DNA of 64,000 nucleotides from Bacteroidales bacterium (GCA_963665085.2 CAXXXS010000001.1:609155-673154); one strand, 5' to 3'; shown: positions 41,847 to 60,387, numbered from the stretch's first letter. Numbers and translations: made by a program. The notes: generated by a model not told the origin, from the letters alone.

Positions 41847-42668
41847 ATGAACAATAATAAAATAGCTATTTTAGGCGGAGGAAACCTTGGATCCGCAATT
41901 GCAGAAGGACTAATTAGTTCTGATTACACTGAAGGTAAGAACATAACTGTAACAAGAAGAAAAATACATTTAATTGAATATCTTACAAAAAAAGGGGCAC
42001 ATGTTACAAATGATAATATAGCTGCCGTTAAATCCTCTAATATCATTATTCTTGCAGTAAAACCATACCAGGTACTTAACCTTGTATCTGAAATATCATC
42101 TGCATTATCTGATAAAAAACATATATTAGTATCTGTTGTTACAGGGATTTCTATCAGGGAAATAAACAAAATAGTACCTAATATTCCTGTATACAGAGCA
42201 ATGCCAAACACCGCAATTGCAATAAGAGAATCCATGACCTGTATTGCTTCAGGAAACGGACATGATAAAAAATTAGACATTGTTTGCAACATATTTGACC
42301 ATCTCGGAAAAACGGTAATAATTAATGAAGAACTTATGGGTGCTGCTACAGTAATAGGTGCTTGTGGAGTTGCCTTTGCATTACGTTTTATGAGAGCAAT
42401 GTCTCAGGGTGGTATTGAAATCGGTTTTAATTCAGAATTGTCACAATTTATTACAGCTCAGACCATTAAAGGTGCTACGCAACTAATCCTGGAAAGTGAA
42501 AATCATCCGGAAAAAGAAATTGATAAAGTTACTACCCCCCAGGGAATAACTATCTCAGGCCTGAATGAAATGGAACATCAAGGATTCAGTTCTGCAGTAA
42601 TAAAAGGACTTCTTCAATCATTCAAAAAATTAGAAGCAATTGAAGAGAAAAAGAATAATAAAAATTAA
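41847..42668 (+). CDS. proC: Pyrroline-5-carboxylate reductase
   Basis: 273 aa with an N-terminal Rossmann motif (IAILGGGNLGSAI), AVKP, RAMPNTA, and the C-terminal dimerisation-domain motif VTTPQGITI. Confidence 0.92.
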   Translation: MNNNKIAILGGGNLGSAIAEGLISSDYTEGKNITVTRRKIHLIEYLTKKGAHVTNDNIAAVKSSNIIILAVKPYQVLNLVSEISSALSDKKHILVSVVTGISIREINKIVPNIPVYRAMPNTAIAIRESMTCIASGNGHDKKLDIVCNIFDHLGKTVIINEELMGAATVIGACGVAFALRFMRAMSQGGIEIGFNSELSQFITAQTIKGATQLILESENHPEKEIDKVTTPQGITISGLNEMEHQGFSSAVIKGLLQSFKKLEAIEEKKNNKN

Positions 42669-45600
42669 TATTTAATTAATCTTATTGATTCTGAGTAACC
42701 AGTTTCTAATTCTGTAACCCTCAAAAAATATAATCCAGAAGGAATTTCATAACCAAACTGTAGCGTTGATTCAGTTTCTTCTAGGATAGAGGAATGAAGT
42801 ACATTACCAGAGATAGATATTAATTCCATCTTTAATTCACCACTTATTCCATTTCTAGCTATTAGAAGACTATTTTTAAACGGATTTGGATAGGCACTAA
42901 CTTTGTTTAGTTTAGCACTCTTATGGTTCCCAATTCCTACTGTTGGCTCTAATTTTTTATTAATCACTGCCTGTAAAACACTATTATCATCTTCATCCTG
43001 CAAGAACAAAGCAACTTTCATATTGTCTACATTCTCAACATTGTCAACATCCCAGGTATAGCTATCTGAATATTCTTCATCTTCATCCCAGTCAGATTGT
43101 AATAAAATACCTCCTGCATCTGGCAAAAACTTCCTGAATGTATTCATAAAAATGATATTCTCCCCATCTACTTCCAGTTCAACAGAATCTTCAAGAATTA
43201 CAATGTATAGATATAAATCCCTGTCATTTGTTGATTCTAACGATTTTACCGAATAATCAACGCCAAGGGTATTATCCTCAACAACTGTATTTAATTCTAA
43301 TTCAAAGTTTGATTCTTCAAGTGATTTTACAATAATATCATTGCTTGAGATATCACTTGTCCCGTATTCATAAATATCAGTCCCATCCAACAAAGACAAT
43401 GGCACTGTTGAAGAGCCATAATATAGAAGACGGGCATTTACTTCAAGTGGGTTTATTAAATTAAAAGGATCGCTCCCCGGAAAATCTGTGTGATATTGAA
43501 TATCTATCAGATCGTTAATATTCTCTAATCTAAGTGTATTTATGAGATTGTCTTCTGTTAAACTAAGATCATCATTTGTGTTGGTAAAATGCTCTAAAAG
43601 AACCACATGATTTCGTTCCTGAAACCAAATATTATCAAAGCTTACACCACCATTCTCGTTATTAGTACCATCAGAACCATATACAATTCTAAACTGAATA
43701 TTGGTTTTTCCAGCTAATTCGTCCAATCGATGTCTTACTTCTACCCACTTAGTATCCTTAATATTAGTCCAGCCTTCATCATGTCCGCCAGGGTTACCGT
43801 TTATCTGATATGAATTGTACCAATTAAGACCATCATCGACAGTACCAACTAGATTCCATGTTTTTCCATTATCCGTTGTATATTGCAGGTTTGCGCCGTC
43901 ACGAACTTCCTCAAAATCCCTCCAAATATCAAACTTAACAAAAGGTTTCTCTATATCTTCAAAATTAAAACATGGACTTTTTATCCAAGAGGATTCTTCT
44001 CCCGTATATTCAAGTTGTGTGTACCATGCTTTATTGTTTGTTGTCTTACTAAGGCTTTCTTCTGTTGAGCCAAATAACCAACTGTTATTATTTAAAGCTT
44101 TGCTAAATTCATTTTCCCAATATGTATTAGTCACTTCAAAGTCCTGGAAATAAGGGCCATCAGCAATTTTAAAAGTAGGTTTGAGCTGAATATTATCCTC
44201 AACAGTATCTACACATCCTTGCGTAGTTTTTGCTATCAATTTCACCAGGTATTCATCAAGAAGACTGAATTTATAGTATATACTATCTCCATAAAAATAT
44301 TCTGTCCCTACATCATCAGAAAAAATCCACTCATATTCAACTATATCGTAATTACTGGTAACTGTTTGCACAAAAAGAATTGAAGTATCTGGATCTAAAC
44401 ACTCAGAGGAAAAAGTAAAACTTGAAAGAGGGCTTTTCCCAAATTCAATATCTTTTGTAGCAGTAGCCACACAATTTTCACTAGTAGTTGCAGTAAGAGA
44501 TACAGTATAATCATCTGCTGTTTCGTACGTATGAGAAGGATTTTCTATAGTACTGGTATTCTGAGAACTTCCAAAATCATTAAAATTCCATAACCAAGCA
44601 GTTATTTCATCTTCCGACTCGGTTTGGTTAATAAACCTAATTGCTAATGGGGAATTTTCATTTACACATGTATCCTGTGTTGTGAAATAAATATGCGGTA
44701 TATCATTAACAACAACCGTTTCTATGGCTTTACTAATACATCCACTTGGCGCTTCATAACTAAATGTAAGATCATTAGTCCCAACACTAGCTTTTTTGGG
44801 ATTAAAATAGAAATTAATTGCGTCTGTAGTATCTGATTCGACACCTGTACCAGAAAACACACCGTCCAGTTCACTTCCATTTAATACAATTCGTGAATCA
44901 TTTCCACAAAATTCTGTTGTATTAAGTATAAAAAAGACCTCATCCACATATTCTATACTTATAATTCTTTCCAAAGCGTCATAAGAACTTCCGCTCCAAT
45001 AGGTATACGTAATTGTATAATCGCCAACTCCAAGGACCTGGGGATTGATAGTAGCACTGTTGTCTCCATGGTTTGTTAACCCAACACCTCCTGATATTGA
45101 AAAAGTACCTACCTGCTCATAAATATTAGCCCCTGTTATAATAAAAGGATCTTCATTCGAACAAAACACATCCCTATCATCAGGAAAAAATATATTCGCA
45201 ATCGAATCAATTATTGTAACCTCAGCTGTATCTGAATAAAAACAACCCGTAGTAGGATTTTCATAGCTGTAAATTATTTCGTATGGCGTTTCGCCATATT
45301 CAACTGCCAATTCAGGATAAAATATTGAAGTACTCGTTACAACACCATCTCCTTTAAATTCTCCTCCTGAAGGACTTGCCACTAGTTGAACAGGATTAGA
45401 GTTTATTGCATATGTTGAGCTCAGCCCAACAAACTGAATTTCAACATCAGGATAATTCGATACTGTTGCTGAACCGCTGGACGTTCCAATACAACCATTA
45501 TTATCTGTAAATTCTAATATTTCATATTCTCCAGGCTCTGTAACATGGAAAGAAAAAGGTGTTGTATTAATTCCTTCTATCGTCCCAGCAGATTCATCAT

Positions 45601-46360
45601 CAATCATATATTCCATATCATAAGGAGCAGAACCAGTAAATATTACACTCAACGGCGTTGATTCTTCTGCACATTTCTCATCTCCTCCCACTAAGTATGC
45701 AGTTGATTTATCATAATGCGATAATGTAAATGTTCCAACAGCTGTACCCGTACAGTTTTGATCACTAACAGTAAGAAGTGAATATGTTCCTTCCTGAGAA
45801 ATATTTAAATAATAGGGTGAAGATTGAATCTTAGAAACTGTTACGGCAGTTCCTCCATTATAACTGTATGTTATCTTCCATGGGGCGTTACCGTTAAGAT
45901 CTATCCTTGCATTGTACGAACTTTCTTCACAAATTGATCTATTGCCAGATATTATTGCTTCCGTTAATGGTGCAATGAGACTCGTTTTTATAGTATCTGT
46001 AGAATACGTTATTGGCCCATCATTATCAGAAGCCGCAATCAAATAGAACTCTCCTGTTTTGTCGAATTCTAAAATTGTATCTTGCTCATAAATATTATTA
46101 TAGATATTTGTAAAATCACCTTCTGAATTATTAACCTGGATTGTTACACTCCATGGAGCGGTCCCCGCCAGGGATAAATTAATTTCCACAACCTCTCCAT
46201 AACAAATAGCAGTCTCTCCAGTGATAACTGCTTGTTGAGCAAACACTGAATTAGAAGTCAATAAAAGGACTATAGTGACTCCAAGATATAATATCTTATT
46301 TGCTAACCCTCGTAAATATGCAAATGGCCAGAAATTATTATTTTTGTATTTATTATTCAC
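42665..46360 (-). CDS. Large T9SS-secreted surface protein: Ig-like repeats, two PKD domains, a MAM/LamG-like jelly-roll, an Omp28/thioredoxin-like region and a T9SS C-terminal domain
   Basis: 1231 aa with a signal/TM segment (ILYLGVTIVLLLTSNSVFAQQ). PKD-like segments are present (WLWNFNDFGSSQNTSTIENPSHTYETADDYTVSLTAT; YEWIFSDDVGTE...YLVKLIAKT). There is a jelly-roll-like region (WIKSPCFNF ... GANLQYTTDNGKTWNLVG ... IQFRIVYGSDG). The T9SS CTD reads AYPNPFKNSLLI ... GLYFLRVTE. It is the last gene of the six-gene operon. Confidence 0.8.
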   Translation of the reverse strand: MNNKYKNNNFWPFAYLRGLANKILYLGVTIVLLLTSNSVFAQQAVITGETAICYGEVVEINLSLAGTAPWSVTIQVNNSEGDFTNIYNNIYEQDTILEFDKTGEFYLIAASDNDGPITYSTDTIKTSLIAPLTEAIISGNRSICEESSYNARIDLNGNAPWKITYSYNGGTAVTVSKIQSSPYYLNISQEGTYSLLTVSDQNCTGTAVGTFTLSHYDKSTAYLVGGDEKCAEESTPLSVIFTGSAPYDMEYMIDDESAGTIEGINTTPFSFHVTEPGEYEILEFTDNNGCIGTSSGSATVSNYPDVEIQFVGLSSTYAINSNPVQLVASPSGGEFKGDGVVTSTSIFYPELAVEYGETPYEIIYSYENPTTGCFYSDTAEVTIIDSIANIFFPDDRDVFCSNEDPFIITGANIYEQVGTFSISGGVGLTNHGDNSATINPQVLGVGDYTITYTYWSGSSYDALERIISIEYVDEVFFILNTTEFCGNDSRIVLNGSELDGVFSGTGVESDTTDAINFYFNPKKASVGTNDLTFSYEAPSGCISKAIETVVVNDIPHIYFTTQDTCVNENSPLAIRFINQTESEDEITAWLWNFNDFGSSQNTSTIENPSHTYETADDYTVSLTATTSENCVATATKDIEFGKSPLSSFTFSSECLDPDTSILFVQTVTSNYDIVEYEWIFSDDVGTEYFYGDSIYYKFSLLDEYLVKLIAKTTQGCVDTVEDNIQLKPTFKIADGPYFQDFEVTNTYWENEFSKALNNNSWLFGSTEESLSKTTNNKAWYTQLEYTGEESSWIKSPCFNFEDIEKPFVKFDIWRDFEEVRDGANLQYTTDNGKTWNLVGTVDDGLNWYNSYQINGNPGGHDEGWTNIKDTKWVEVRHRLDELAGKTNIQFRIVYGSDGTNNENGGVSFDNIWFQERNHVVLLEHFTNTNDDLSLTEDNLINTLRLENINDLIDIQYHTDFPGSDPFNLINPLEVNARLLYYGSSTVPLSLLDGTDIYEYGTSDISSNDIIVKSLEESNFELELNTVVEDNTLGVDYSVKSLESTNDRDLYLYIVILEDSVELEVDGENIIFMNTFRKFLPDAGGILLQSDWDEDEEYSDSYTWDVDNVENVDNMKVALFLQDEDDNSVLQAVINKKLEPTVGIGNHKSAKLNKVSAYPNPFKNSLLIARNGISGELKMELISISGNVLHSSILEETESTLQFGYEIPSGLYFLRVTELETGYSESIRLIKY

Positions 46361-47534
46361 TTGAATTCAATTTTAATAGTGCGACATCGCTACTCTCATT
46401 TTCATTATAGCCTACAAGATATAGTTCTCCATCAATTACTAATGAATTATTTACTTGTAATAGAGATGCATTTGAACTGTTATTTGCACCCAATTCTTTT
46501 TTTGCTAAAAAGTCACCATCAAAATCATAATATAATATACAAATATTACCATTTTTCTGGCCTTTAGGAAACCTGTTTGATATTACTGCAAATCCTTTAT
46601 TCTGAAAAACAATATCAACAGGTACAATGTTTCTTGTATCTACAAAATCGGTTTCCCATTCAACACTCAAAAAATTATCCAGATCAACTCCATAAATCTT
46701 CAAACCGCTAACTTCATCATCTGAATTTTTTTCGTTTGCTGCAAAGATTATCGTATTATCATACTTTTTCAGACATAATCCTTCATTAATTTTCTCAGAA
46801 CCATACGATTTATAACCTGTCTGTTTACCTGTACCCTTGAGATTAACAAGCCATATAGATCGTTCTCTACTGGATGTAACATTATAACTCTCTGAATAAC
46901 CAATAAAATAGTATGAATCGTCTACTTCAATAATATTAGAAGCTATATCATCTGCATAACTTCCTCCATTAACGTATTGAGAAACAAGTTCCCCATCCAA
47001 ATTAATTTTCAAAAAATAGGTGTCTGTTAAATCTCCAGTGCTTGTAGTATTTCCCAGTACAACAATCTCATTCCCTAAAATAATAGCATCAGAAGCACTA
47101 ACGCTATTAAGATATTCTCCGTAATAATTGCTCCACTCGATTGAATTATTTTTTAACTTTCTAATAAGTATCCTTTCATTATACCCATCATCCATTACAC
47201 TTGAAACTATGTATAAATTATTCGCTTCATCACAAAGAAGTTTTTGCCCGTACTCATCTTCATCCAAATCATCGAGGATAAAAGGTTTATTAATAAACTC
47301 TCCTTGCTTGTTTAAAAAATATAAACAAGTACTTGCCCTGCTTGTATCTGTAACCTGAAAATTCGATAAGACACAAATATTATTATTATACTCACAAATA
47401 TCTACTCCAATATCGTTTTTACCTTCTCCAAAATATTTAACAAATGCAATATCTGATTGTGTTCCTTCATCAACACATCCCGTTATAAAACTAATAACAA
47501 CAAAAACCGCAAATATGATATTTCTATAATTCAT
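46353..47534 (-). CDS. Lipoprotein with repeated beta-propeller-like units
   Basis: 393 aa with the lipobox SFITGC. Repeated units are present (LYIVSSV..., YFIGYSE..., LYLVGYNENESSDVALLKLN). It overlaps the downstream gene by 8 nt and abuts the upstream gene with 0 nt between them. Confidence 0.6.
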   Translation of the reverse strand: MNYRNIIFAVFVVISFITGCVDEGTQSDIAFVKYFGEGKNDIGVDICEYNNNICVLSNFQVTDTSRASTCLYFLNKQGEFINKPFILDDLDEDEYGQKLLCDEANNLYIVSSVMDDGYNERILIRKLKNNSIEWSNYYGEYLNSVSASDAIILGNEIVVLGNTTSTGDLTDTYFLKINLDGELVSQYVNGGSYADDIASNIIEVDDSYYFIGYSESYNVTSSRERSIWLVNLKGTGKQTGYKSYGSEKINEGLCLKKYDNTIIFAANEKNSDDEVSGLKIYGVDLDNFLSVEWETDFVDTRNIVPVDIVFQNKGFAVISNRFPKGQKNGNICILYYDFDGDFLAKKELGANNSSNASLLQVNNSLVIDGELYLVGYNENESSDVALLKLNSSE

Positions 47535-48566
47535 CTATCTGATTTTTGCTGGTTTATAAAATGTGTATCTGTATCCGATATTAATGAATACATTGTGTAA
47601 AAGAAAGTTATCATCAATATAATAGTTATCTGACCATAAAAAGTCATTATACGTTAACCTATTCTTACTCTGATAAGCAAATCCAATTTTCGAATGAACA
47701 TCTAAAAAAACAGTCCCTTTAGAAATTGGATATGAATAATTAACTCCAACAAGAAGACTCGGTTCAAAAGATCTTCTATGAGATAATATTGATTCCTCTG
47801 AACCAGTATAAGATGTACCTGAGTAGTCACTCTTGGTTGGAGTTCCTTTTGCAGATGTAATAAATTCGAAATTTGCCCCCAGATAGAACTCGGGTGAAAC
47901 AGATAATTCTGGAACAAGGTCACTTAAATCGTAACTTGCAAAAAGGGGTATATTTATTCTTGTCTGTTTTTCTGCAAAATTTATCAAAGCAGTATTCTCA
48001 ATAGATTCTTCGAATTCAAAATTGCTTTGAGATAGTTCAAAACGAATATTTGCGTTCAAATTTTTAACATACTTACTTAAACTATAGGAGGCACCCGCCA
48101 TAAAAGAAAAGCCTGTCTTCCCAAGTTTAATCCCTGTTGAACCGGGTGTTGGTGAAGCTGAATATACTTTTCTAATGTGAATTACTGACTGATTCGCCCC
48201 TAATCCACCATAAAATGAATATATTGGTACTGCTTTGTAAGACTCAAATAGATAGATAAATTCGGCAGGATCATCAGTCCTGACCTCGTAATTAGGAAAT
48301 TCTTTGAAAAAATTTAAAATTGCTATTTCAGCATCTGCCTGGTTATCATCAAATAGATATGTTAATATCAATATTTTATACGCACTAATTTTTTCTTCCC
48401 TGGAAAATCCTTCATTAAGACAAGGGACAAGTAAACTGGGGATATCTTCAATAATTCCATCCTCAAAATTTTGTCTTGCCCTTCTTAGATTATCGGAGCA
48501 ATCATTTTGTGCAAAGTTCTCAACACAAAAAAAAACTAATATTATTGTAAATAATACCCTAATCAT
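47535..48566 (-). CDS. Outer-membrane beta-barrel protein with an N-terminal helical (TPR-like) domain
   Basis: 343 aa. It has a signal peptide (FFCVENFAQ) and a ~100-aa helical region. The C-terminal ~230 aa show an alternating beta-strand pattern and an aromatic terminal strand (FINIGYRYTFY), resembling the OMP_b-brl_2/PorT-like families. Confidence 0.65.
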   Translation of the reverse strand: MIRVLFTIILVFFCVENFAQNDCSDNLRRARQNFEDGIIEDIPSLLVPCLNEGFSREEKISAYKILILTYLFDDNQADAEIAILNFFKEFPNYEVRTDDPAEFIYLFESYKAVPIYSFYGGLGANQSVIHIRKVYSASPTPGSTGIKLGKTGFSFMAGASYSLSKYVKNLNANIRFELSQSNFEFEESIENTALINFAEKQTRINIPLFASYDLSDLVPELSVSPEFYLGANFEFITSAKGTPTKSDYSGTSYTGSEESILSHRRSFEPSLLVGVNYSYPISKGTVFLDVHSKIGFAYQSKNRLTYNDFLWSDNYYIDDNFLLHNVFINIGYRYTFYKPAKIR

Positions 48567-48576
48567 TAAAGCTTAA

Positions 48577-51500
48577 TTAATTACATGTTTTTTCATACGG
48601 AATATCATCACCAACATACGTATTCCATTCATTTTGAGAAAAGTTTCTCTCAATGTGTTTACACATTTTCTCTGCCATTACAGAGATAGAAGTTGGCCAA
48701 ACATATACGTTGTTACCATCACGGCTTGATGACACTAAATATTTACTATTCGGGCTAAATTCAACCGAAAACACCCATGAATCGTGACCTGTTAGGACTA
48801 TAGCTGGATCATTATCATCGGAAAGATTCCATAAAAGAATTGTTCCATCGCGACTTGATGACGCTAAAAATTGTCCATTCGGAGAAAAATCTACATCTTC
48901 AACCCTTGATTTATGTCCTTTTAAAGTTCTTATCACATTTCCCGAGAACGGATTAATAAGTTTTACATCTCCTGTTTTGTCGCCAAACGCCAAATACCTA
49001 CCACTTTTATTGAATTTCAAAGTATATATAGAATTACCTGGCTGTTCATAAAGTGTACTTGGAGCGCCATCGGACAGACTCCACAGGACAATTTTACCAT
49101 CCTCCGTACTTCCAACAACATATGAACTACTTGTTGGCCTGGTACAGATTGACAATATCCTAAGATCATTTTCTACGATGATCTTGCCTTTTAATGTTGA
49201 TAGGTCCCAACTAATAATCGATTTATCAGCTCCGGTACTAAATAATAATTGATTATTTGGAGCAAATGCCAGCGACCAAACCTGGCCTGTATGTCCAGAA
49301 AGTTCTTTTGGAGATGCGTTGATGTTAGTTAAATCAAACAGGTATATTTTTGTCCCAGCACTTACACCTAACCATTTCCCATCATTACTAACTACTGCGC
49401 TTCTATACAACTGATTGTCATCTACAATAATAGATTTTGATTTGGGATTTGAAATATTCCAACTAATTATTTTTCCATCATTCCCGGTTGAATAGAAAAC
49501 ATCTGATGAATTAGGGCTGAAAGTGATGGCCCTAACTGCACCTACATGTTCTTTAAAGCTCATAAAAGACTCTTCTTCTGAGGCTTTTAATGCACTCATC
49601 ATCCCATAATAAATATCTGTATTAAATTCTTTGCCATCAAATTTTTTATTTATTTTATATGCCTGGTATGCAAGAAGTGCTTTTAAATTTAAATTTTGAT
49701 TGATTTGCCTGGACTGAATTGCCATTGTATTTGCAATTCCAACCATCCTTTGGTTATATTCACGTTCTTTCTCCCGTTCCGCCTCTGAAACTTGATCTTT
49801 TGTTTTTTCCAATGTTTGCTCAACTTGCTCAACCTGTTTTGCAGCTTGATCAATAGCTTGTTCAGATTCCTGTTTTGCAATATTTGCACCTTGTATAGCA
49901 AGTTCCTTTTCAACAACAGATTTTTCTGAAATAGCATCTGCTATCTTTCGTTTCTCTGATTCTTCTTCTGCAAATGATTCTGCTATTAATTGAAGTTCTT
50001 GTGCCCTAAGTGCATTCTGTTGCGCAATTTCTCTTTGCTTATCAGCCTCTTGTCTTGCTTCTTCTGCAATCTCTCTTTGTTTTGTTGCATCTAAACGTTG
50101 AAAATTTGCATAAAATACAAGTCCAAGAAAAATAAATGATGCTACCCCAAGTACTGCGGCGAATCTCCGGGTCCTAATAAGGGTCCGCTTTTGTAAGCGG
50201 ATTTTTGTCCTTTCCTCAGATTCATATTTTTTCTCGCTGGTCTCAAGAAAAACCATAGTTCTTTCAAAGGCAGGATTGTAGCGTTTTGCCCAGGCAAGAT
50301 TTGGTTTATATTTCTGTCTCCAATTCTGGGCAAGCAATAGATCCGGAGGCCTCCATAAGCCAGACTTTCCTAATTGATATAACTCAGCTGCTTCCGATAA
50401 ACGAAGATACATCCTAACAGATTCTTGTTCCTCGTTAATCCATAATTTGAGTTTATCCCAATTTCGCATGATGCTTTCATGGGAAATATCAATAACCGTA
50501 TTTGGAGTAAGTTCTACTTCTATTGCAGGAGTTAAAAATGCCCTACCCTCCATTCTAAACTTATCAATTACTTCTATTGTATCTCTAACAGAAGCTTGTG
50601 CTACTTCTGCTATTAAAGATACTTTTGCGGGATGCCTGATTCCCCGGTTATCTTCTCCCCTCTCTGTAAGGGTAGTAAACATACTCCTACATATTCTTTT
50701 CCCATCGTCTGTTAACTCATTGTATGCTTCATCAGCATGAATCGATATCGCCCTATCAATTCTTCCAACAGTTTCATAATCAACATAGGATATTGCAGCA
50801 TCTTTATTGCCATATTTAGTCCAATGTTGATAGGTTCTCATTAATGCATGCTGAATTACTGATAACGAATCTATTTCATCCGTCACGTTATTCAACAATT
50901 CATATATTAACTGCTCTTCTATTTTATATCCCGCTACAGAAACAGGACCTGTTATTACTTTTCGATAATCTTCCCTAGACATCCTTGGGATCAAATAATT
51001 ACTTTGATTAATCCTTCTTGCAAGATCCGGGAATTGAGAACATTCGCCCAAAAAATCCGAGCGCATTGTTACAATAACATAGATGGGAAGTTCGGTTTGA
51101 GAGACAGCCTCGGTCAACAACTTGATAAATGTCTCGGTCTCATTAATCACATCGAAGTTACGCGTAACCTCCCTGAACCTGAATAATTCCTCAAATTGAT
51201 CGACAATCAATAATAAATTTTGTCCCTCCCTGAGTTTTAATTGTTTTACTACTTCAATTAAACCAAGTGTACTCCGTTTAAGCAATGATAAAATAACAGG
51301 TTTTGCTGCACTCCTATAGTCATTATCGTCCTTCCTGTTAAATGCCTTATAAATGGACTCAGCCATGTTTGAAATAGGGCTACTGCCAGGCCTAAAATGT
51401 ACTATTTTCCAATTAGCACCGGCCTCTTTAATAAATCCTCCATGCAACCCAGATATTACGCCACAATACACAAGGGAAGATTTACCTTCGCCTGAAGCAC

Positions 51501-51681
51501 CAGTTACTGCAGCAAATCTATATCTTGTCAGATTCCTGATAACTTCAGCACTCTGTCCTTCCCTGCCAAAAAACAAGTAATTATCCCCAATCGAAAAAGG
51601 CCTTAATCCAGGAAATGGATTATAGACACCTTTCACAGAGGTTTCTTGTTCTGTTTTTATGTCAATCTGAGCTTGACTCAT
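48577..51681 (-). CDS. STAND-type P-loop NTPase with a predicted TM helix, a long coiled coil and a C-terminal WD40 beta-propeller
   Basis: 1034 aa. The N-terminal motif is FPGLRPFSIGDNYLFFGRE. Walker A is GASGEGKSS (aa 61-69) and Walker B is LLLIVDQFEELF. The helical module contains DISHESIMRNWDKLKLWI. A basic stretch (KIRLQKRTLIRTRR) precedes the TM helix FAAVLGVASFIFLGLVFYANF (aa ~507-527, nt ~50101-50163). A ~115-aa charged coiled coil follows, then at least 6 WD40 repeats (e.g. GHTGQVWSLAFAPNN...SWDL; GHKSRVEDVDFSPNGQFLASSSRDGTILLWNL). Confidence 0.85.
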   Translation of the reverse strand: MSQAQIDIKTEQETSVKGVYNPFPGLRPFSIGDNYLFFGREGQSAEVIRNLTRYRFAAVTGASGEGKSSLVYCGVISGLHGGFIKEAGANWKIVHFRPGSSPISNMAESIYKAFNRKDDNDYRSAAKPVILSLLKRSTLGLIEVVKQLKLREGQNLLLIVDQFEELFRFREVTRNFDVINETETFIKLLTEAVSQTELPIYVIVTMRSDFLGECSQFPDLARRINQSNYLIPRMSREDYRKVITGPVSVAGYKIEEQLIYELLNNVTDEIDSLSVIQHALMRTYQHWTKYGNKDAAISYVDYETVGRIDRAISIHADEAYNELTDDGKRICRSMFTTLTERGEDNRGIRHPAKVSLIAEVAQASVRDTIEVIDKFRMEGRAFLTPAIEVELTPNTVIDISHESIMRNWDKLKLWINEEQESVRMYLRLSEAAELYQLGKSGLWRPPDLLLAQNWRQKYKPNLAWAKRYNPAFERTMVFLETSEKKYESEERTKIRLQKRTLIRTRRFAAVLGVASFIFLGLVFYANFQRLDATKQREIAEEARQEADKQREIAQQNALRAQELQLIAESFAEEESEKRKIADAISEKSVVEKELAIQGANIAKQESEQAIDQAAKQVEQVEQTLEKTKDQVSEAEREKEREYNQRMVGIANTMAIQSRQINQNLNLKALLAYQAYKINKKFDGKEFNTDIYYGMMSALKASEEESFMSFKEHVGAVRAITFSPNSSDVFYSTGNDGKIISWNISNPKSKSIIVDDNQLYRSAVVSNDGKWLGVSAGTKIYLFDLTNINASPKELSGHTGQVWSLAFAPNNQLLFSTGADKSIISWDLSTLKGKIIVENDLRILSICTRPTSSSYVVGSTEDGKIVLWSLSDGAPSTLYEQPGNSIYTLKFNKSGRYLAFGDKTGDVKLINPFSGNVIRTLKGHKSRVEDVDFSPNGQFLASSSRDGTILLWNLSDDNDPAIVLTGHDSWVFSVEFSPNSKYLVSSSRDGNNVYVWPTSISVMAEKMCKHIERNFSQNEWNTYVGDDIPYEKTCN

Positions 51682-53086
51682 TGGTATTTAATTCATTAAA
51701 AATAGGACTCAAAGATTTATCTAAAAGTTTGTCCTGATATATAATTTTTATAACGTCGCCAATATCTCTTTTAAATATCTTACTATAATCATCTTCTTCT
51801 AGCATTACTGCTTTAACCTTAAATTGTTTCTCCCGGCCATATCCCCAGACTTTCCTCAAATCATTTAATTTTGCGTCAAGCCATCCTTCAACACCATTAT
51901 AGATTATTATAACCCCATCACAATTACTCAAATTCTCGTAGTGTTCGTTGAGTACATTTTGAGCCTCATAATTCAGCTCTAATGTTTTTATTTTATTTTC
52001 TGATAACAAAGATTTTATTCTATCTGCCTTTTCTTCAGCAGTTTTATCATATACAAGATATATTGATTTTTCATCCACTACTTTAGTGTTAGACAATTTA
52101 ACACGGGCTGCAATCTTTTGAAAAATCATTTTTTTTAAGTCCTCAAGAGGAGCTTGAATTATCTCTGTTGATTCGTCTGTCTCTTCTCTTCGTATCCTTC
52201 GAAGATATAATTCCTGTCTTTGATCTGGAATTTTAAGATATGGTGGGATCCAAATTATACGTTGAAAACTTGCTTTTCCCCTGTTTGCTGCTATGAATTC
52301 TTTTACTTGCCTATTCTGAAAATCATTAAGAGAATATGCTGTACCTTTTATATAATCTCCATAAATTCCACCCATAATGTGAATACTGAGCTGAGATTTT
52401 TGACATATATCCAGGATCTCGTTCTTTAATTCATCTGATTGTCTTGGTAGAGAGGATTTCGGAAGCACATCAAATCCTCTTTGTCTTAACTCTCTAATAA
52501 TTTTGTCTCTATATATTTCCTGATCCGGACTGGTCTCTGCAACAAAAACCTTGATAAAGTTATTCTGAGCCTGTTCTGAGTCTTTGTCGACAAATTGATG
52601 AATATCATATACAAGGTCAATTAAGTTGTCCCAGATTACAGAGTTATCCGGGATTTTTTTTGAAAAATCAATAGCCTTAAAACTTTTAATGCCAATATTC
52701 CTTTCAAAGATATTGTACGATGAAAAAGTATTTAGCCACTCTAATTTTGAATCATAAAGGGGTTTTTGGACAATTAACCGAAGTTTTTCTTCGTGTTTCC
52801 CATCCTCAAGCATTTTTTTTAATAATTCCTCATAGGATTTATTTTTAATATATTCAGGAGATATTATTGCAAATAAGATATCAAATTCATCTTTAAAACT
52901 TAAAAAAGTCTCTTCTTTCTCTATCGGGCGAAAATCTTTTATAACTATTTCGATTTTATCTTCGAAGAGCTGACTATATATTTCCTGTGTTAGATTAACA
53001 AATTCAGAAATCCATATAATAGATTTATCTGGTATATCTTTTTTAGATACAGGATAAAATGTTAATATTTTTAATGTTTTTGGCAT
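51662..53086 (-). CDS. Protein of three tandem alpha/beta modules resembling TIR-like/DUF4062 domains
   Basis: 474 aa with no TM or signal sequence. Module 2 (KVFVAETSPDQEIYRDKIIRELRQRGFDVLP ... QLSIHIMGGIYGDYI) resembles the DUF4062 pattern. Modules 1 (ILTFYPVSKKD ... FDILFAIISPEYIKN) and 3 (IYLVYDKTAEEKADRIKSLL ... CDGVIIIYNGVEGW) resemble TIR-like folds. The assignment rests on motif resemblance only. It overlaps the NTPase gene by 20 nt. Confidence 0.5.
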   Translation of the reverse strand: MPKTLKILTFYPVSKKDIPDKSIIWISEFVNLTQEIYSQLFEDKIEIVIKDFRPIEKEETFLSFKDEFDILFAIISPEYIKNKSYEELLKKMLEDGKHEEKLRLIVQKPLYDSKLEWLNTFSSYNIFERNIGIKSFKAIDFSKKIPDNSVIWDNLIDLVYDIHQFVDKDSEQAQNNFIKVFVAETSPDQEIYRDKIIRELRQRGFDVLPKSSLPRQSDELKNEILDICQKSQLSIHIMGGIYGDYIKGTAYSLNDFQNRQVKEFIAANRGKASFQRIIWIPPYLKIPDQRQELYLRRIRREETDESTEIIQAPLEDLKKMIFQKIAARVKLSNTKVVDEKSIYLVYDKTAEEKADRIKSLLSENKIKTLELNYEAQNVLNEHYENLSNCDGVIIIYNGVEGWLDAKLNDLRKVWGYGREKQFKVKAVMLEEDDYSKIFKRDIGDVIKIIYQDKLLDKSLSPIFNELNTNESSSD

Positions 53087-53092
53087 AAGTTC

Positions 53093-56000
53093 TTAACTAG
53101 CTCTTCTTTTTTTTGATGCGTAAAAATCGTTCATTATTTTTTGAAAAACAATTTCTAACTCAGGAAAATCAAATATTTGCATATTGAGATCCTCTCTTGT
53201 GATAGTAATAATTGATGTCATCATTAACGTCTTTACATCAATTTCATCTATTTCCTTATCATGTAACAGTCCAAAATCAATCACACTGTTTTTATTTAAC
53301 CTTAGAATTTTTTTTCCTTTATGTTGTATTTCTACTTCGCCTTCAGCTACAAAAAGAATTGGATAAGTCCATGGGTTTCCTTTATATGTAATTATCCTGT
53401 TTGCTTCCATTGTATCTTCCGTAAGGTAGATTGAAAGTTCTGTAAGTATTGCAGGCCTTAAACTACCGATATGTTTCAATTTTTTAAGAAAATTAACTTT
53501 ATTAATGAGTAATCTTCTCTTAAAAGTTTTATAAAATTCTACTGAATTGTCAAGGAAGAGCCTTGTTTGCTGATCTAACCGTTCGAGCGTTTCGTAATAA
53601 AGATCCGGATCTTTATTAAAAACCAGGCATGCTGCTGTTTCTTGTAAAATTCTGGATTTATGAAACAAAAATGAAATAATTACATCATTTAATTGAAAAT
53701 CATCATTATCAATTAAACTATATAAAACTTCGGCCTTTGTCCAAATACTAATTTGGCCTAGCTCAGAAGTCAGAATCTGGTTAATTATTTCATCTTTTTC
53801 TACTTTTTCAAAAGGAAAAAATTGACTTAATGACTTCATCTTTTGAAGCATTGAAGAACTTTGGAAAGCAGGTATTAAAATTGATTTTATGTTGCTATCA
53901 ATTATATTATCAACTAATTCCAAGGCAAGATGGTTCGATGTTAAGTCTTCTTTTTCAATATAATCCCTCAATTTTGCAATAATGCTCCTGTTATGAATTA
54001 GGGAGAGCATCATGTATATCCTGTCAAAACTATTTTCTATATCATTTTTAAGTGATTCCTGTACTGTTTCAGAATATTCTGTTTTTGCTAATGATACCTG
54101 CAGGGTAAGATTTTGAGTGATTGAACTAACAATTTTAATAATAATATTAAGTATCTTATACTGTGATTTTTCGTTAGGCCTATATCCTGAATCTACTAAA
54201 CTGGATGTTGCTTGTCTTGATACTTCAGGAGAAGAAAAATCAATTTTAGAAATAAGCAACATTTTAGCCTTTTCACTATTAAAATCTCCAACTAACTTAA
54301 CTACTCGTTTAAGTAATTTATCGTCTATTTTAGGTTCAAAAAATAATTTTTCTAAATACTCAATGCATTTATCACCCACTCTAATTAAAACATCATAGGC
54401 ATAAGCATAATTCTCTGCTGATGCCAGCTGATCAATCATAATGGGAGTAAGCTCATTGGCATTAAAATTTGTTGATGCAATAAATGCTGCATTTCTAACA
54501 TTTGGATCATAATCTTTTAACAACAAGATAATCTGAGACATTAGTTTTTTATCCTGAATAGCTCCTATCATATTCGCTGCTAAAATCCGGTTATCAGAAT
54601 CTCTTGAATCGACTAGTTTATAAATATTTGTATAGTCGTTCGTAGTTTTTAATTGAGTAGCAAAAATATCGGAAAGCTTTTTAAATCTTGTTTTTAAATA
54701 CGCATCTTTCAGATTCTTTGTCTGTTTTTCTATCTGGTTCTGATATTGCAACATACTTAGTTTTTCTATCCTTTCTATTGCAAACTCTTTTATTACTTCT
54801 GGGCTATTTCCTAACAAGTAATATAAATTATTTCTAAAATCCGCAGGATAATTACTTTCAGCTAATTTTAATGTATAAAGCATTTTATCAGGATCGTCAA
54901 GCATATTAAGCTTATATAAACGCTGTTTTAATCCTATTACCTGATTTAAAAAATACTTTTTAGATTTTGCTAATTCATTTAAATGGGCCCTCAATAAAAT
55001 CTGAAATTTCTTTAGTAAAAGAAATAACGATACAATTGCAGCGATACATAGGAAGAAAATGACTATTGCCACTACTACTTCCCGGTTTGATGATAGTTTT
55101 GTTATGATGTATATGATTCCTCCAGATATTGCAAGAGAAACAAAATAAAAAGTCCCCCTAAAAAGTCTTCTTAACAAATCATAAGTAGGAATCTTATTAA
55201 TTCTTAATAAGATATTTAACGAAGGAGAGTAAACACTGTCGCGAAGAACATCATTCATTATTTTTAACAGAACAAAAAACAAAAACATGAGAGAATATTT
55301 ACTAATAAAAACATTCTCTTTTATTAAAAAATTTATCGCCAGTAATAATCCAACCAGGATTAAGATAACAACTGGAATCACAAAAATATTAAATGGAGAG
55401 TCGTAACTATTTAAAATTCTTTTAATAAGGATATACTTAAAAAATAATGAGAACATGGACAAAGTCCCCAAGAATAAACCTAAAAACTTAGCATATCCGA
55501 TACCTGATTCATAATTACCCTGAAGTAACGTATAAAACGAAAAATTTATATGAACAGTGATAAAAACAAGAAGCATACAGCTAATGATCATATAAATAAA
55601 ATATGGATATTTAAAAATCATTCTAAGACTTACACTTTCATATTTTCCAGCTATTAATCTTTGTTTTGCGCCATAGTTTGCCTTAGTTGTACTTCCAATA
55701 TTCATTTGTACAAACAAGATCACCAGCACTCCACCAAAAGCAAACAAAAGGAGCTCCCCAGAGTGGGGCCGTATTAATAAATAAACAATTATTAAAAATC
55801 CAACGGCTGCTACACCCAAATAGTAAAATGTATCAAGAAAAAACTTGTACCTCTTTGACTGGTCATTCGTAAAATACAGTCCTTGAATTCCTTGAGTTAA
55901 GTAAAAACTTAAATTATTAATCGGGATTGCAAAAATAACCCCAACATAAAAAATAACCGGAGTAAAGTAAAACAAAGATAATAAGCCTACTATTAGTAAA

Positions 56001-56305
56001 ACTATTAGAAGCAATAAATAGTAATAGAAACTATAAAACCTAACTTTGGTTTGTATTTTCAATCCTGCAAAAACAGGGAATAGAATAACCCCTGCTATAC
56101 CAGAAAAAACAAAAACTAATGGAAGCTCCCTTGCAGAATAATAATGTAAAAAATTTGAGAAGATATAAATATCAAACGCTCCAATAAAAACTCCTAAAAA
56201 AAAAGCTTGCAAAATAAACTTGGAAAGGAAAGACAGTTCATTAAAGTCAATGTTAAAATGACTAAAAAGGTAGTTCTTTATTTGGTTTCCCTTGAGCGAT
56301 TTCAA
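53093..56305 (-). CDS. Polytopic membrane protein (MFS/TLC nucleotide-transporter-like, ~12 TM) fused to HEAT repeats and a C-terminal degenerate cyclic-nucleotide-binding-like domain
   Basis: 1070 aa. About 12 hydrophobic helices occupy aa ~25-430. HEAT/PBS-lyase-like repeats are present (NRILAANMIGAIQDKKLMSQIILLLKDYDPNVRNAAFIAS). The last ~138 aa (nt ~53096-53510) have a CNB beta-roll pattern (RIITYKGNPWTYPILFVAEGEVEIQHKGKKILRLNKNSVIDFGLL). They lack the canonical FGE...R[ST]A phosphate-binding cassette. Confidence 0.7.
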   Translation of the reverse strand: MKSLKGNQIKNYLFSHFNIDFNELSFLSKFILQAFFLGVFIGAFDIYIFSNFLHYYSARELPLVFVFSGIAGVILFPVFAGLKIQTKVRFYSFYYYLLLLIVLLIVGLLSLFYFTPVIFYVGVIFAIPINNLSFYLTQGIQGLYFTNDQSKRYKFFLDTFYYLGVAAVGFLIIVYLLIRPHSGELLLFAFGGVLVILFVQMNIGSTTKANYGAKQRLIAGKYESVSLRMIFKYPYFIYMIISCMLLVFITVHINFSFYTLLQGNYESGIGYAKFLGLFLGTLSMFSLFFKYILIKRILNSYDSPFNIFVIPVVILILVGLLLAINFLIKENVFISKYSLMFLFFVLLKIMNDVLRDSVYSPSLNILLRINKIPTYDLLRRLFRGTFYFVSLAISGGIIYIITKLSSNREVVVAIVIFFLCIAAIVSLFLLLKKFQILLRAHLNELAKSKKYFLNQVIGLKQRLYKLNMLDDPDKMLYTLKLAESNYPADFRNNLYYLLGNSPEVIKEFAIERIEKLSMLQYQNQIEKQTKNLKDAYLKTRFKKLSDIFATQLKTTNDYTNIYKLVDSRDSDNRILAANMIGAIQDKKLMSQIILLLKDYDPNVRNAAFIASTNFNANELTPIMIDQLASAENYAYAYDVLIRVGDKCIEYLEKLFFEPKIDDKLLKRVVKLVGDFNSEKAKMLLISKIDFSSPEVSRQATSSLVDSGYRPNEKSQYKILNIIIKIVSSITQNLTLQVSLAKTEYSETVQESLKNDIENSFDRIYMMLSLIHNRSIIAKLRDYIEKEDLTSNHLALELVDNIIDSNIKSILIPAFQSSSMLQKMKSLSQFFPFEKVEKDEIINQILTSELGQISIWTKAEVLYSLIDNDDFQLNDVIISFLFHKSRILQETAACLVFNKDPDLYYETLERLDQQTRLFLDNSVEFYKTFKRRLLINKVNFLKKLKHIGSLRPAILTELSIYLTEDTMEANRIITYKGNPWTYPILFVAEGEVEIQHKGKKILRLNKNSVIDFGLLHDKEIDEIDVKTLMMTSIITITREDLNMQIFDFPELEIVFQKIMNDFYASKKRRAS

Positions 56306-56437
56306 TTTCGGTATAATTTATTTTATGACAAATATAAAAATTGTAAATACAAATTGAACTTTATCTTTTGATTTGCAAAAGTAGTTAATCGCAATTTAAA
56401 CAATTGTTTTTTTTTGATGTTACTGTCAAAAAAATAG

Positions 56438-57208
56438 ATGTTCGACCCTTTTAGAAAAGAATTTGGAAAATTTGAGGCACGCAGAGAGTTAGTTTTTCTA
56501 ATTCTATCTGGTTTATTTGTTGGCACACTCGCCATGCTCAATATTTTAGGAATAACACGGTTACTCGACCTATCGTTTACAATATTTAACAGAGAAATCC
56601 CTTTTAGGGTCTTTGTTGGAGTCCTGCCTTATCCGATTACATTTTTATGTACTGACCTAATTAGTGAATTCTATGGTAGAAAAAGAGCCTCTATTGTAGT
56701 TTGGGTTGGGCTTATACTTAATTTATGGGTAATTTTTATTTTATGGATTGGTGGAATACTACCACCAGTCCCAGAATTTAATCCTGAAAACGGATTACCC
56801 TACCCAGGTGATCCTAATCTATTATTTTTCGAGATAAGAAGATATACATTTAGTGCAACCTTTGCATCAATGATAGCATATCTAACAGCCCAGTTTGTTG
56901 ACGTACATATTTTTCATTTCTTAAAAAACCTGTCTAAAGGAAAAATGTTATGGTTACGAAATAATGGATCAACAATAACCAGTCAATTAATAGATTCTTT
57001 AGCTGTTGTTTTAATAACCTATTTTTTTACTCACGCAATAGTAATAAACGAGGGAGAAAGTGTTTCAAAAGTTTTATTCGTATTAATTATATCTAACTAC
57101 CTTTTTAAAATGTTTGCAGCCTTAATTGATACAATCCCATTCTATTTAGGAGTTAATTTTCTATCAAAATTTCTTGACATAGATCCTACAGAAGAATTCA
57201 AAAAATAA
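56438..57208 (+). CDS. yhhQ: Queuosine-precursor transporter family protein (YhhQ/DUF165, VUT family)
   Basis: 256 aa with ~6 TM helices and family-typical segments (YPITFLCTDLISEFYG, NNGSTITSQLIDS). Confidence 0.8.
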   Translation: MFDPFRKEFGKFEARRELVFLILSGLFVGTLAMLNILGITRLLDLSFTIFNREIPFRVFVGVLPYPITFLCTDLISEFYGRKRASIVVWVGLILNLWVIFILWIGGILPPVPEFNPENGLPYPGDPNLLFFEIRRYTFSATFASMIAYLTAQFVDVHIFHFLKNLSKGKMLWLRNNGSTITSQLIDSLAVVLITYFFTHAIVINEGESVSKVLFVLIISNYLFKMFAALIDTIPFYLGVNFLSKFLDIDPTEEFKK

Positions 57209-57210
57209 TT

Positions 57211-57729
57211 TTAACAATCCTTCTTACTTTTCTCCTTTAACAACATCAATAAATCATCTGCATTAAGATTAAACCCAGATATAATATGCTTTGATTGTTC
57301 GTAATAATTTTCTCTTTCCTTCAATTTAGATTTTATAAAATCTATAAGTTCCTCCGGGCTTTTTCCCTTTATAAGGGGCCTGTCTGTTTTTGAAGAATTA
57401 AGACGACTTGAAAGAACTTCTGGAGATATTTTAAGATAAATAGAATCTGAGAATTCATTAATAAGTTTCATATTGTCCCCGAAACAAGGTGCGCCGCCTC
57501 CTGTTGCTAAAACAAATTCTTTTCTTTTAAGTACATTCATTAATGTAGTTCGCTCGATCTCCCTGAATTGTGGTTCACCGTCTTCAGCAAAAATATCCGG
57601 AATTGATTTCCCTGTAGTATCTTCGATTTCAGCATCTAAATCAACAAAGGGATGTTCTAGCCTTGAAGCTAAACGCTTCCCCAGTGTTGTTTTACCTGAC
57701 CCCATAAATCCTACAAGAACTATCTTCAT
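57211..57729 (-). CDS. aroK: Shikimate kinase
   Basis: 172 aa with Walker A GFMGSGKTTLGK, FVDLD and LATGGGAP motifs. Confidence 0.92.
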   Translation of the reverse strand: MKIVLVGFMGSGKTTLGKRLASRLEHPFVDLDAEIEDTTGKSIPDIFAEDGEPQFREIERTTLMNVLKRKEFVLATGGGAPCFGDNMKLINEFSDSIYLKISPEVLSSRLNSSKTDRPLIKGKSPEELIDFIKSKLKERENYYEQSKHIISGFNLNADDLLMLLKEKSKKDC

Positions 57730-57739
57730 AGAATTATTT

Positions 57740-60334: not shown

Positions 60335-60387
60335 ATTAATTCTGTAACTTTCCCAGGTTTGTTATATATCAATTAACACATCTTGCA

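Follow-up and report, generated by a model that had tools for sequence, protein, structure and literature searches.

Six closely packed genes on one strand of DNA from a Bacteroidales bacterium raise the question of whether their products, which appear to be distributed from the cytoplasm to the cell surface, are parts of a single system and, if they are, whether that system serves conflict or signalling. The genes lie in a stretch of 64,000 nucleotides (nt) (GCA_963665085.2 CAXXXS010000001.1:609155-673154; here called the window, with all coordinates counted from its first letter). An earlier note on this DNA had proposed a candidate conflict or surveillance system that spans the cell envelope, and had allowed a signalling role unconnected with defence as equally possible. 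The evidence described here largely shows that the genes constitute one vertically inherited Bacteroidota operon encoding an envelope-spanning signalling apparatus. The six open reading frames (ORFs), designated A to F in the order of the operon, are listed here with the main features of their products; T9SS is the type IX secretion system and AF2 is AlphaFold2.

53093-56305, minus strand: A, 1070 amino acids (aa), TTG start; inner-membrane protein of the NTT-HEAT-cNBD type (its parts are listed below)
51662-53086, minus strand: B, 474 aa; soluble, three alpha/beta modules (Pfam, AF2, family profiles)
48577-51681, minus strand: C, 1034 aa; membrane-spanning STAND NTPase (its parts are listed below)
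47535-48566, minus strand: D, 343 aa; signal peptide, helical domain of ~100 aa and outer-membrane beta-barrel (hydropathy, orthologue profiles)
46353-47534, minus strand: E, 393 aa; lipoprotein with lipobox ...ITGC, Cys20, and a beta-propeller (family profile)
42665-46360, minus strand: F, 1231 aa, GTG start; T9SS cargo (signal peptide, Ig-like, PKD, Omp28-like and Por_Secre_tail)

The ORF listing reproduces the six minus-strand genes of the earlier note exactly to the base, including their junctions: a 6-nt gap between A and B, a 20-nt overlap of B and C, a 10-nt gap between C and D, a 0-nt gap between D and E and an 8-nt overlap of E and F.

The argument that these genes form a unit starts from how often, and in what order, they recur. 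An alignment of C, used to scan one genome from each GTDB species (a single C sequence gave zero relatives), yielded at least 569 tblastn-confirmed relatives of C, and synteny was annotated for the best 80 of these (loci L016-L095) with hidden Markov models built from the first sets of loci. These best 80 are full-length C proteins of 36–48% identity, nearly all from genomes labelled as Bacteroidota, and they place full-length C in about 80 species-level genomes of the Bacteroidales, Cytophagales and Flavobacteriales. The taxa include Bacteroidales, Vicingaceae and Tenuifilaceae, and among the Cytophagales the carriers include Cyclobacteriaceae, Fulvivirga, Ekhidna, Ohtaekwangia, Chryseolinea, Chryseosolibacter, Chryseotalea and Sporocytophaga. 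The order that recurs across these ~80 genomes is A-(HAMP-PP2C)-(B)-C-D-E-(large T9SS protein), parentheses marking the genes that are not always present. When genome and metagenome loci are taken together, a cluster of the same order is found in at least 140 loci other than the window, and an arrangement repeated in about 140 independent loci is far beyond chance. Within the 52 genome loci that have enough flanking sequence, 45 contain at minimum A-C-D-E in that order, and the individual arrangements are as follows.

A-B-C-D-E: 23 of 52 loci
A-B-C-D-E-F: 9 of 52 loci
A-PP2C-B-C-D-E-F: 7 of 52 loci
A-C-D-E: 4 of 52 loci
A-PP2C-B-C-D-E: 3 of 52 loci
A-PP2C-C-D-E-F: 2 of 52 loci
A-C: 2 of 52 loci
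Oddities: 2 of 52 loci

The same linkage is seen when the search begins with D. A metagenome scan seeded with a 10-sequence subset of D (the 59-sequence alignment was too divergent to serve as a seed) returned 61 loci, and in every one of the 59 that have upstream sequence C lies directly upstream of D; E follows D in nearly all of those with downstream room. Likewise, loci reached through homologues of B or A have the order A-B-C-D-E-F (L001-L004) or B-C-D-E-F (L005, whose contig begins just upstream of B), with a B that is 35% identical to that of the window in L001 and L004 and 74% identical in L005. All six window proteins were compared in L001, L004 and L005 and are orthologous at 22–80% identity, A lying beyond the start of the L005 contig. 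Other loci are shorter or augmented: L009 has A-B-C-D-E without F, L011 has A-HK-PP2C-B-C-D (HK, histidine kinase) and L012 has A-C alone, and in roughly a quarter of the 52 loci a gene for a HAMP-SpoIIE (PP2C) phosphatase separates A from the B or C that comes next. Judged by this synteny, A and C are the invariant core, a minimal pair, and we read the six genes as one unit in which the linkage of A-B-C to D-E-F is about as strong as comparative genomics allows. The association of A-C with D-F in relatives, on which the earlier note had placed weight, is borne out both by the 45 of 52 genome loci and by the 59 of 59 D-seeded loci.

Several of these loci are worth describing individually. The HAMP-PP2C insertion occurs in 18 loci within L016-L089 and also in L011 (L011:13129-17696), which has a HAMP-HisKA-HATPase histidine kinase as well; the operon of the window has neither gene. 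These insertions lend the cluster a signalling character. One metagenome-assembled genome (MAG), JAGQYI01 (Cyclobacteriaceae HKST-UBA61), contains two paralogous copies of the cluster (L074 and L079), one with the order A-B-C-D-E followed by a giant ORF and the other A-C-D-E without B. Three MAGs labelled Thiohalospira, Roseobacteraceae and Chloroflexota (L044, L055 and L089, respectively) contain a typical Bacteroidota cluster with a C of 36–44% identity, which reflects either binning contamination or horizontal transfer.

It is informative to examine where the operon lies in these chromosomes. In the window, the run that begins with yhhQ next to A continues with aroK, parC and parE (56438-62232). 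The series parE-parC-aroK-(yhhQ) also precedes A in five Bacteroidales-type MAGs (L071, L030, L012, L091 and L094), three of which (L012, L091 and L094) have A-C only at this site, and parts of the series precede A in about ten further loci. Identity to the window in the genomes that share the site is 64–66% for ParC, 36–42% for C and 21–29% for A. A site conserved at that divergence argues for vertical inheritance, and the comparison indicates that the position of the operon is ancient and has been stable over order-level divergence. In other genomes the neighbours are ribosomal-protein, gyrase/topoisomerase, transporter and metabolic genes. We therefore rejected a mobile defence island, given the conserved site, the housekeeping flanks and the modular gain and loss of genes, and on these same grounds (the site being parE-parC-aroK-yhhQ) the conflict or defence-island part of the earlier proposal was not borne out by the tests that the note itself had set, while the view of a single machine across the envelope was strengthened. 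The alternative that it had offered, signalling without defence, is the better-supported half.

The earlier note had recognised no named system in this gene set, and none has emerged from PADLOC, NCBIfam or the literature. PADLOC left A, B, D, E and F unmatched and reached C only through its WD40 repeats, in a candidate model; NCBIfam gave zero system-level assignments for the six proteins; and the papers searched describe neither this cluster nor a STAND protein that faces the periplasm. The cluster is undescribed, and its parts come from known families (nSTAND1, DUF4062/TIR, NTT-HEAT-cNBD, OMP_b-brl_2 and T9SS type-A cargo). Similarly, the logic of STAND and TIR signalling is known; the trans-envelope architecture and the set of partners are new.

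How the products might be connected depends to a large extent on C, whose architecture is close to that assigned to it before: a STAND NTPase, a transmembrane (TM) helix, a helical stalk (a coiled coil in the earlier note) and a WD40 propeller.

50374-51618, minus strand: nSTAND1 NTPase of C, residues 22-436, cytoplasmic (PF20703)
50107-50163, minus strand: TM helix of C, residues 507-525, single, N-in/C-out (hydropathy 2.32)
49732-50103, minus strand: helical stalk of C, residues 527-650, predicted periplasmic, rich in E, A, Q and K and free of proline (composition)
48577-49614, minus strand: WD40 propeller of C, residues ~690-1034, predicted periplasmic (WD40 families; Cys1007/Cys1033 pair)

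The NTPase matches PF20703 (nSTAND1) with 301 bits against a cut-off of 27.1, with GASGEGKS as Walker A and DQFEE as Walker B, and ten of its residues (G61, S63, G64, G66, K67, S68, D161, Q162, E164 and E165) are invariant in 80 of 80 homologues; the WD40 repeats are matched by Pfam. The TM helix is likewise present in 80/80, at a distance of 139–174 aa from the propeller, and is flanked by a net charge of +5.4 in the preceding 15 residues and of +0.1 on the other side. Cys1007 and Cys1033 occur together in 72 of these homologues and are both absent in 7, leaving a single one with one of the two. Because the NTPase must be cytoplasmic, and because of the positive-inside charge bias and the co-variation of the cysteine pair, the stalk and the WD40 propeller are strongly predicted to lie in the periplasm, as had been claimed for the propeller. 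Just 21 residues precede the nSTAND1 domain, and neither an N-terminal effector nor an effector-associated domain is present. C is also the most conserved of the operon's proteins, with 57% identity at a divergence where A, B, D and F have 35–40%.

Compared with the nSTAND1 STAND NTPases that have WD40 sensors (PMC8195603), and with Apaf-1/NLR-like and Avs-type receptors in general, C is similar in its full nSTAND1 domain, its invariant Walker motifs and its C-terminal WD40 repeats, and its gene adjoins one for a TIR-type protein. It differs from the nSTAND1/Avs type in the TM helix and stalk of ~140–175 aa that separate NTPase and propeller, and in being fixed in an operon with an NTT-like protein, an outer-membrane barrel, a lipoprotein and a T9SS cargo. 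Furthermore, unlike the Avs, bNACHT and nSTAND receptors, it has no fused N-terminal effector or adaptor, its sensor repeats are predicted to be outside the cytoplasm and its gene is not in a defence neighbourhood. The databases list some C orthologues under 'High-affinity carbon uptake protein Hat/HatR' or 'EcfA2' (L053 and L081; WP_254163350.1 and WP_127120546.1), names that appear to have propagated from WD40 or P-loop similarity; orthologues of other genes in the cluster are named 'hypothetical', 'DUF4062 domain-containing' or 'porin family'.

The constant partner of C is A, a large protein of three parts, the last of which resembles domains that bind cyclic nucleoside monophosphates (cNMP).

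54971-56305, minus strand: residues 1-445 of A, 12 TM helices, NTT/TLC (ATP/ADP translocator) fold (hydropathy, AF2, Foldseek)
53471-54898, minus strand: residues ~470-945 of A, cytoplasmic HEAT-repeat solenoid (HEAT_2 and all-helical AF2 model)
53108-53458, minus strand: residues ~950-1066 of A, cNMP-binding-like beta-roll without the phosphate-binding cassette (AF2, Foldseek)

Hydropathy places 12 hydrophobic segments inside residues 26-428, and in the AF2 model (mean predicted local distance difference test score, pLDDT, of 80) 12 TM helices are followed by a long helical solenoid and then, at the C-terminus, by a beta-roll. Foldseek ranks AtNTT1 and Chlamydia NTT1 (CpNTT1) as the best matches of this model in the PDB, with target-normalised TM-scores of 0.70–0.74, followed by the cyclic nucleotide-binding domains of SLC9C1 and of the CNG and HCN channels. 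In Pfam, A of the window matches HEAT_2 (40 bits, residues 564-631) and nothing else even at E = 10, so that neither PF00027 nor PF03219 is detected. Its homologues at 21–36% identity bear cNMP_binding (PF00027), HEAT_2 and MFS_1 (PF07690), and more distant ones bear TLC (PF03219). The description of A as a 12-TM protein with HEAT repeats and a degenerate cyclic nucleotide-binding domain therefore needs some qualification: the TM region, the HEAT repeats and the roll stand, by fold, and the degeneracy proves to be subfamily-wide, while a sequence-level match to PF00027 is missing from the window protein.

The same three-part architecture, NTT-HEAT-cNBD, was catalogued in 2017 (PMC5381601). A has the NTT fold and the HEAT repeats of these proteins and a C-terminal roll that is cNBD-like in fold, and its distant sequence relatives bear PF03219, PF13646 and PF00027. 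It is unlike them in that the system-linked subfamily has a highly divergent TM domain and has lost the cNMP cassette (0/65), and in that a STAND gene invariably comes after a system-linked A, whereas the stand-alone relatives examined, L014 and L015, have no STAND neighbour. The pairing of A with C is accordingly specific to this subfamily. In one of those relatives (L014:5464-11219) PF00027 is detectable and a Guanylate_cyc gene is found two genes upstream, a neighbour consistent with real control by cNMP among the stand-alone proteins. The beta-roll of A is shortened in L012, a locus with A and C only (L012:10001-13045), and the roll may thus be required only in the presence of B, D, E and F.

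B, for which hydropathy gives no TM segment, consists of module 1 (residues 1-168), module 2 (176-335) and module 3 (338-470), each a beta/alpha unit in the AF2 model (mean pLDDT 79). DUF4062 is matched at residues 179-247 (27.5 bits, cut-off 24.7) and TIR_2 falls just under its cut-off in the window protein; across 56 members of the family, DUF4062 is matched in 47 and TIR_2 in 30. Family profiles give module 1 a weak resemblance to the TIR domains of Toll-like receptors (E = 0.0016–0.0028), and the usual position of the catalytic Glu is not conserved in the family alignment, so we regard this module as probably TIR-like and non-catalytic. Module 3 has invariant residues of its own (W402 and K412) and zero family matches. 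Of the three TIR/DUF4062-like modules that had been described, then, the number, the DUF4062 domain in module 2 and a weak TIR signal in module 1 are upheld, and module 3 is left unmatched. A triplicated TIR domain is not supported, because hhalign relates none of the three modules significantly to another (best E = 0.0068, module 2 versus 3). Whole-chain Foldseek was uninformative for this three-domain protein: it gave the N-terminal domain of Tm-1 as its top match at a TM-score of ~0.2, and aligned a TIR-STING chain only locally.

DUF4062 domains elsewhere are TIR-like NADases (bioRxiv 10.64898/2026.05.01.722283), a group that includes Swarozyc, Evangelion and TEP1. At the place where characterised members have the catalytic S-Y-T-E, module 2 of B retains S252-x-x-[D/E]255-x-Q257-N258, with position 255, the best-fitting candidate for the equivalent of the Glu, being Asp in 38, Glu in 17 and Ser in one of the 56 family members (acidic in 55/56) and Q257 being kept in 51. 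B is similar to the defence proteins Swarozyc (bioRxiv 10.64898/2026.05.01.722283) and Evangelion (bioRxiv 10.64898/2026.06.25.731849) in passing the DUF4062 threshold in module 2 and in its S-x-x-[D/E] motif, and is unlike them in having three modules, no C-terminal AUX sensor domain and an acidic residue that is mostly Asp. In addition, those are single-gene systems on mobile elements or in defence islands, whereas B is one gene of a conserved chromosomal operon in which PADLOC finds nothing. An exhaustive search of 1.84 billion representatives placed 1044 clusters (50% identity, E <= 1e-30) in the B family; word-indexed protein searches under-reported such families, with 14 matches for B and 11 for A. 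One locus has an extra B-like ORF of 299 aa upstream of A (L038:4150-5049) besides the regular B between A and C.

The likenesses that the earlier note had drawn to Pycsar and Thoeris can be judged against these two proteins, and both analogies failed. A has a cNMP-binding-like fold on TM helices, as in Pycsar, and B has a TIR-type fold, as in Thoeris. However, the membrane part of A is a 12-TM NTT fold rather than a small pore-forming effector, and a Pycsar-like effector was rejected on finding no cyclase in the operon, no PADLOC match and a cNMP cassette absent from all of the 65 system-linked proteins. Thoeris was rejected likewise: models of the ThsA/ThsB type are unmatched in all six proteins (PADLOC, Pfam), and there is no ThsA.

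The other half of the operon encodes proteins of the outer membrane and the surface, as had been foreseen for each of them. For D this is borne out through its orthologues, which match OMP_b-brl_2 (PF13568) in 5 of 5 tested, the window protein itself having no Pfam match; its helical domain has a conserved Cys23/Cys49 pair. D and its orthologues match only the generic OMP_b-brl_2 and OMP_b-brl and neither PorP_SprF nor FadL-like PorV, and a role as a PorP/SprF or PorV partner of the T9SS was rejected because these profiles are unmatched. E is a propeller-like lipoprotein, with a lipobox Cys20 that is invariant in the family and a match of the family profile to the CylK beta-propeller at 8e-41. 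F has the PKD domain, the signal peptide (a hydrophobic N-terminus ending ...VFA-QQ) and the C-terminal domain of an exported T9SS protein, the last matching TIGR04183 with 26.7 bits against a cut-off of 23 (residues 1157-1218); the putative jelly-roll-like region is a label of the earlier note.

42704-42892, minus strand: type-A C-terminal domain of F, residues 1157-1219 (TIGR04183 / PF18962)

A large protein follows E in most other loci too. Of the 39 loci whose downstream sequence extends to 7 kb or more, 36 have an ORF of at least 600 aa that starts on the same strand within ~2.5 kb past E, most starting less than 250 nt from it, with lengths of 1400 to more than 2500 aa. Where these ORFs are complete (proteins of 1400–2600 aa), their C-terminal 600–900 residues are orthologous to F of the window from ~300–530 to 1220, aligning at 24–33% identity with E values as low as 1e-137. 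The repeat arrays at their N-termini vary (Big_13, Big_6, Laminin_G_3, Filamin).

The compartments proposed for the six products, from the cytoplasm through the inner membrane, periplasm and outer membrane to the surface, hold throughout. Established or strongly predicted are the placement of the D head domain and E in the same compartment as the C propeller, that of F at the surface, and that of the HEAT and beta-roll parts of A, of B and, where present, of the PP2C domain on the cytoplasmic side.

The junctions and flanks of the operon bear on whether it is transcribed as one, and the features next to it are as follows.

56306-56437, minus strand: A/yhhQ intergenic region, the sole spacer long enough to house a promoter
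56438-57208, plus strand: yhhQ / Vut_1, queuosine-precursor transporter, divergent from A
41847-42668, plus strand: proC (TIGR00112, 212 bits), convergent with F, 4-nt overlap

Both flanking genes are as reported earlier, proC convergent and yhhQ divergent, and a hairpin scan of the window agreed with that report in finding no terminator-like hairpin at any of the five junctions. Across genomes the median gaps are 25 nt for A to B, 3 for B to C, 5.5 for C to D, 1.5 for D to E and 60 for E to F, where the spacers are longest and reach several kb; the tightness of C to D and D to E holds in ~70 genomes of several orders. The Bacteroidetes-type -7 motif TAnnTTTG occurs on the minus strand of the A/yhhQ spacer at 56329-56336 and 56376-56383, which is weak evidence; across the window the motif is not enriched (85 observed versus 97 expected from shuffled sequence). 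A sigma-70 scan gave sites no commoner than in shuffled sequence, with a model that is irrelevant to Bacteroidota. Antisense ORFs of more than 100 aa at 41924-42292 (minus strand, in proC) and 43815-44153 (plus strand, in F) are probably spurious. In L009, downstream of E and past one PBP-family gene, a HepT/MNT toxin-antitoxin pair lies on the opposite strand (L009:20792-21418).

What might such an apparatus do? STAND proteins that have been characterised sense with their repeat domain; the NTPase then oligomerises and brings N-terminal effectors close together. We tentatively favour outside-in signalling, from D, E and F through C to A, as a real possibility that falls somewhat short of being probable. 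The outer half would comprise D (barrel and periplasmic helical head), E (a propeller lipoprotein tethered to the outer membrane) and F (conserved tail, variable Ig array), and the inner half A, B (a TIR and DUF4062-like adaptor or enzyme) and, in many genomes, the HAMP-PP2C protein. A change at the surface or outer membrane, for example when F or the D/E complex is engaged, lost or damaged, would be read by the periplasmic WD40 propeller of C on its stalk of ~120–160 residues, and the cytoplasmic NTPase would then undergo nucleotide-dependent oligomerisation as in other STAND proteins. C would act in trans on A, because it has no effector of its own and A is its sole universal partner; its oligomer would do so through the HEAT/beta-roll region, and the TIR-like modules of B could serve as an adaptor driven by oligomerisation or could process NAD or some other nucleotide. 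The result would be altered transport or gating by the NTT-like domain, that is, a flux of nucleotides (ATP, NAD), and the PP2C phosphatase, where present, might reset or tune the system. If this is right, C would perhaps represent the first recognised class of STAND protein with a sensor propeller outside the cytoplasm, one that reads an outer-membrane/T9SS complex and signals to NTT-type and TIR/DUF4062 proteins; we put this forward with the reserve due to a claim that is slightly less probable than its opposite.

Several points weigh against this account. The account supposes contacts between the products, a direction of the signal, a ligand and transport by A, each of which is hypothetical. 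Some lineages do without B, and the loci that have A and C only lack D, E and F. The cNMP phosphate-binding cassette G[ED]..L....R[ST]A is found in none of the system-linked A proteins, and the beta-roll may be merely a structural or protein-binding module. Transport activity of A is uncertain because the window protein departs from the family consensus at conserved TM-domain positions, with T137 (consensus F), Q138 (W), L143 (R) and N364 (K). The alignment of B is ambiguous, and Q257 rather than position 255 could be the true equivalent of the catalytic Glu, in which case B would be inactive. Finally, ten minus-strand copies of TAnnTTTG lie within the operon, about the chance expectation, so that internal promoters are possible.

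It is also worth considering that the same parts could work in the opposite direction, as an inside-out control of the surface adhesin F. In Pseudomonas, LapD-LapG-LapA-LapE controls a giant adhesin. By that logic the roll and HEAT parts of A, along with B, would read the cytoplasmic nucleotide or metabolic state and set the NTP state of C, whose stalk and propeller would hold or release D and E and so control whether F is retained, displayed or shed. The resemblance, which is one of analogy and not homology, extends to an inner-membrane protein with a degenerate nucleotide-binding module and a periplasmic domain, an outer-membrane barrel and a giant, repeat-rich surface protein. It also agrees with the giant, variable, adhesin-like T9SS protein with a conserved tail that follows E in 36 of the 39 loci long enough to show one, with a domain of C on a long stalk that could deliver an output in the periplasm, with the nucleotide-binding-type folds of A and B on the cytoplasmic side and with the chromosomal, housekeeping-like context. 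However, the operon has no homologues of LapD, LapG or LapE and no c-di-GMP domains, its surface protein depends on the T9SS and not on a type I secretion system, and its switch is a STAND NTPase, a kind of protein that, in the members characterised, senses through its repeat domain and gives its output through the NTPase side. Moreover, neither a protease nor another obvious periplasmic effector was found in the operon, and the A-C-only loci have no adhesin to govern. We consider this direction unlikely, albeit the nearest competitor of outside-in signalling.

Two further possibilities seem less probable still. That the locus is a conflict system, whether for anti-phage abortive infection or for cell death in contact-dependent or kin recognition, would have the surface and outer-membrane module detect phage adsorption, a breach or a foreign cell, upon which C would oligomerise, the DUF4062/TIR protein B would deplete NAD or make a signal and A would dissipate nucleotides or membrane integrity. 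An nSTAND1 domain next to TIR/DUF4062 is a hallmark of conflict systems (PMC8195603; bioRxiv 10.64898/2026.05.01.722283, 10.64898/2026.06.25.731849), and the acidic residue at position 255 of B, the variable N-terminal arrays of the F-like proteins and the MAG with two paralogous copies are what such a system might have. Nonetheless, PADLOC makes no match apart from C via WD40, the position is conserved among housekeeping flanks across lineages at ~65% ParC identity, module 1 of B lacks a conserved residue at the catalytic Glu position, and C is the slowest-evolving protein of the set and is therefore unlike an arms-race sensor, which would be expected to evolve fast; we think a conflict role quite improbable. 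As for two separate units that merely share a transcript or neighbourhood, an A-(B)-C signalling pair and a D-E-F surface cassette in which a cargo travels with its own outer-membrane partner and lipoprotein, the loci with A and C alone (L012, L091, L094), the absence of F from L009 and the long E-to-F spacers speak for it. Yet D never occurs without C directly upstream among the 59 D-seeded loci, the C-to-D and D-to-E gaps stay tight in genomes of several orders, and the WD40 propeller, the sole part of C that could justify the linkage, shares its compartment with the D head and E. This division of the operon is accordingly very unlikely in our estimation, and the probability left over by all of these readings belongs to something else.

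Outside-in signalling across the envelope, if it is the right reading, would have consequences beyond this locus. STAND and NLR proteins are understood as cytosolic receptors, and a family with periplasmic sensors would extend that paradigm to surveillance of the envelope and surface. The cluster is common, yet every one of its components is annotated as hypothetical or under a mistaken name, and its neighbourhood is a caution that a STAND gene beside a TIR/DUF4062 gene need not mean anti-phage defence. It ties a giant T9SS surface protein to an NTPase switch in the inner membrane, a connection testable in the cultured species Fulvivirga kasyanovii, Chryseosolibacter histidini and Chryseotalea sanaruensis, and it offers a genetic handle on the NTT-HEAT-cNBD proteins, enigmatic since they were catalogued in 2017. 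If true, the reading would give the Bacteroidota a phylum-wide trans-envelope pathway and would for the first time set the NTT-HEAT-cNBD proteins, known also from cyanobacteria, chlamydiae and oomycetes, in a functional context.

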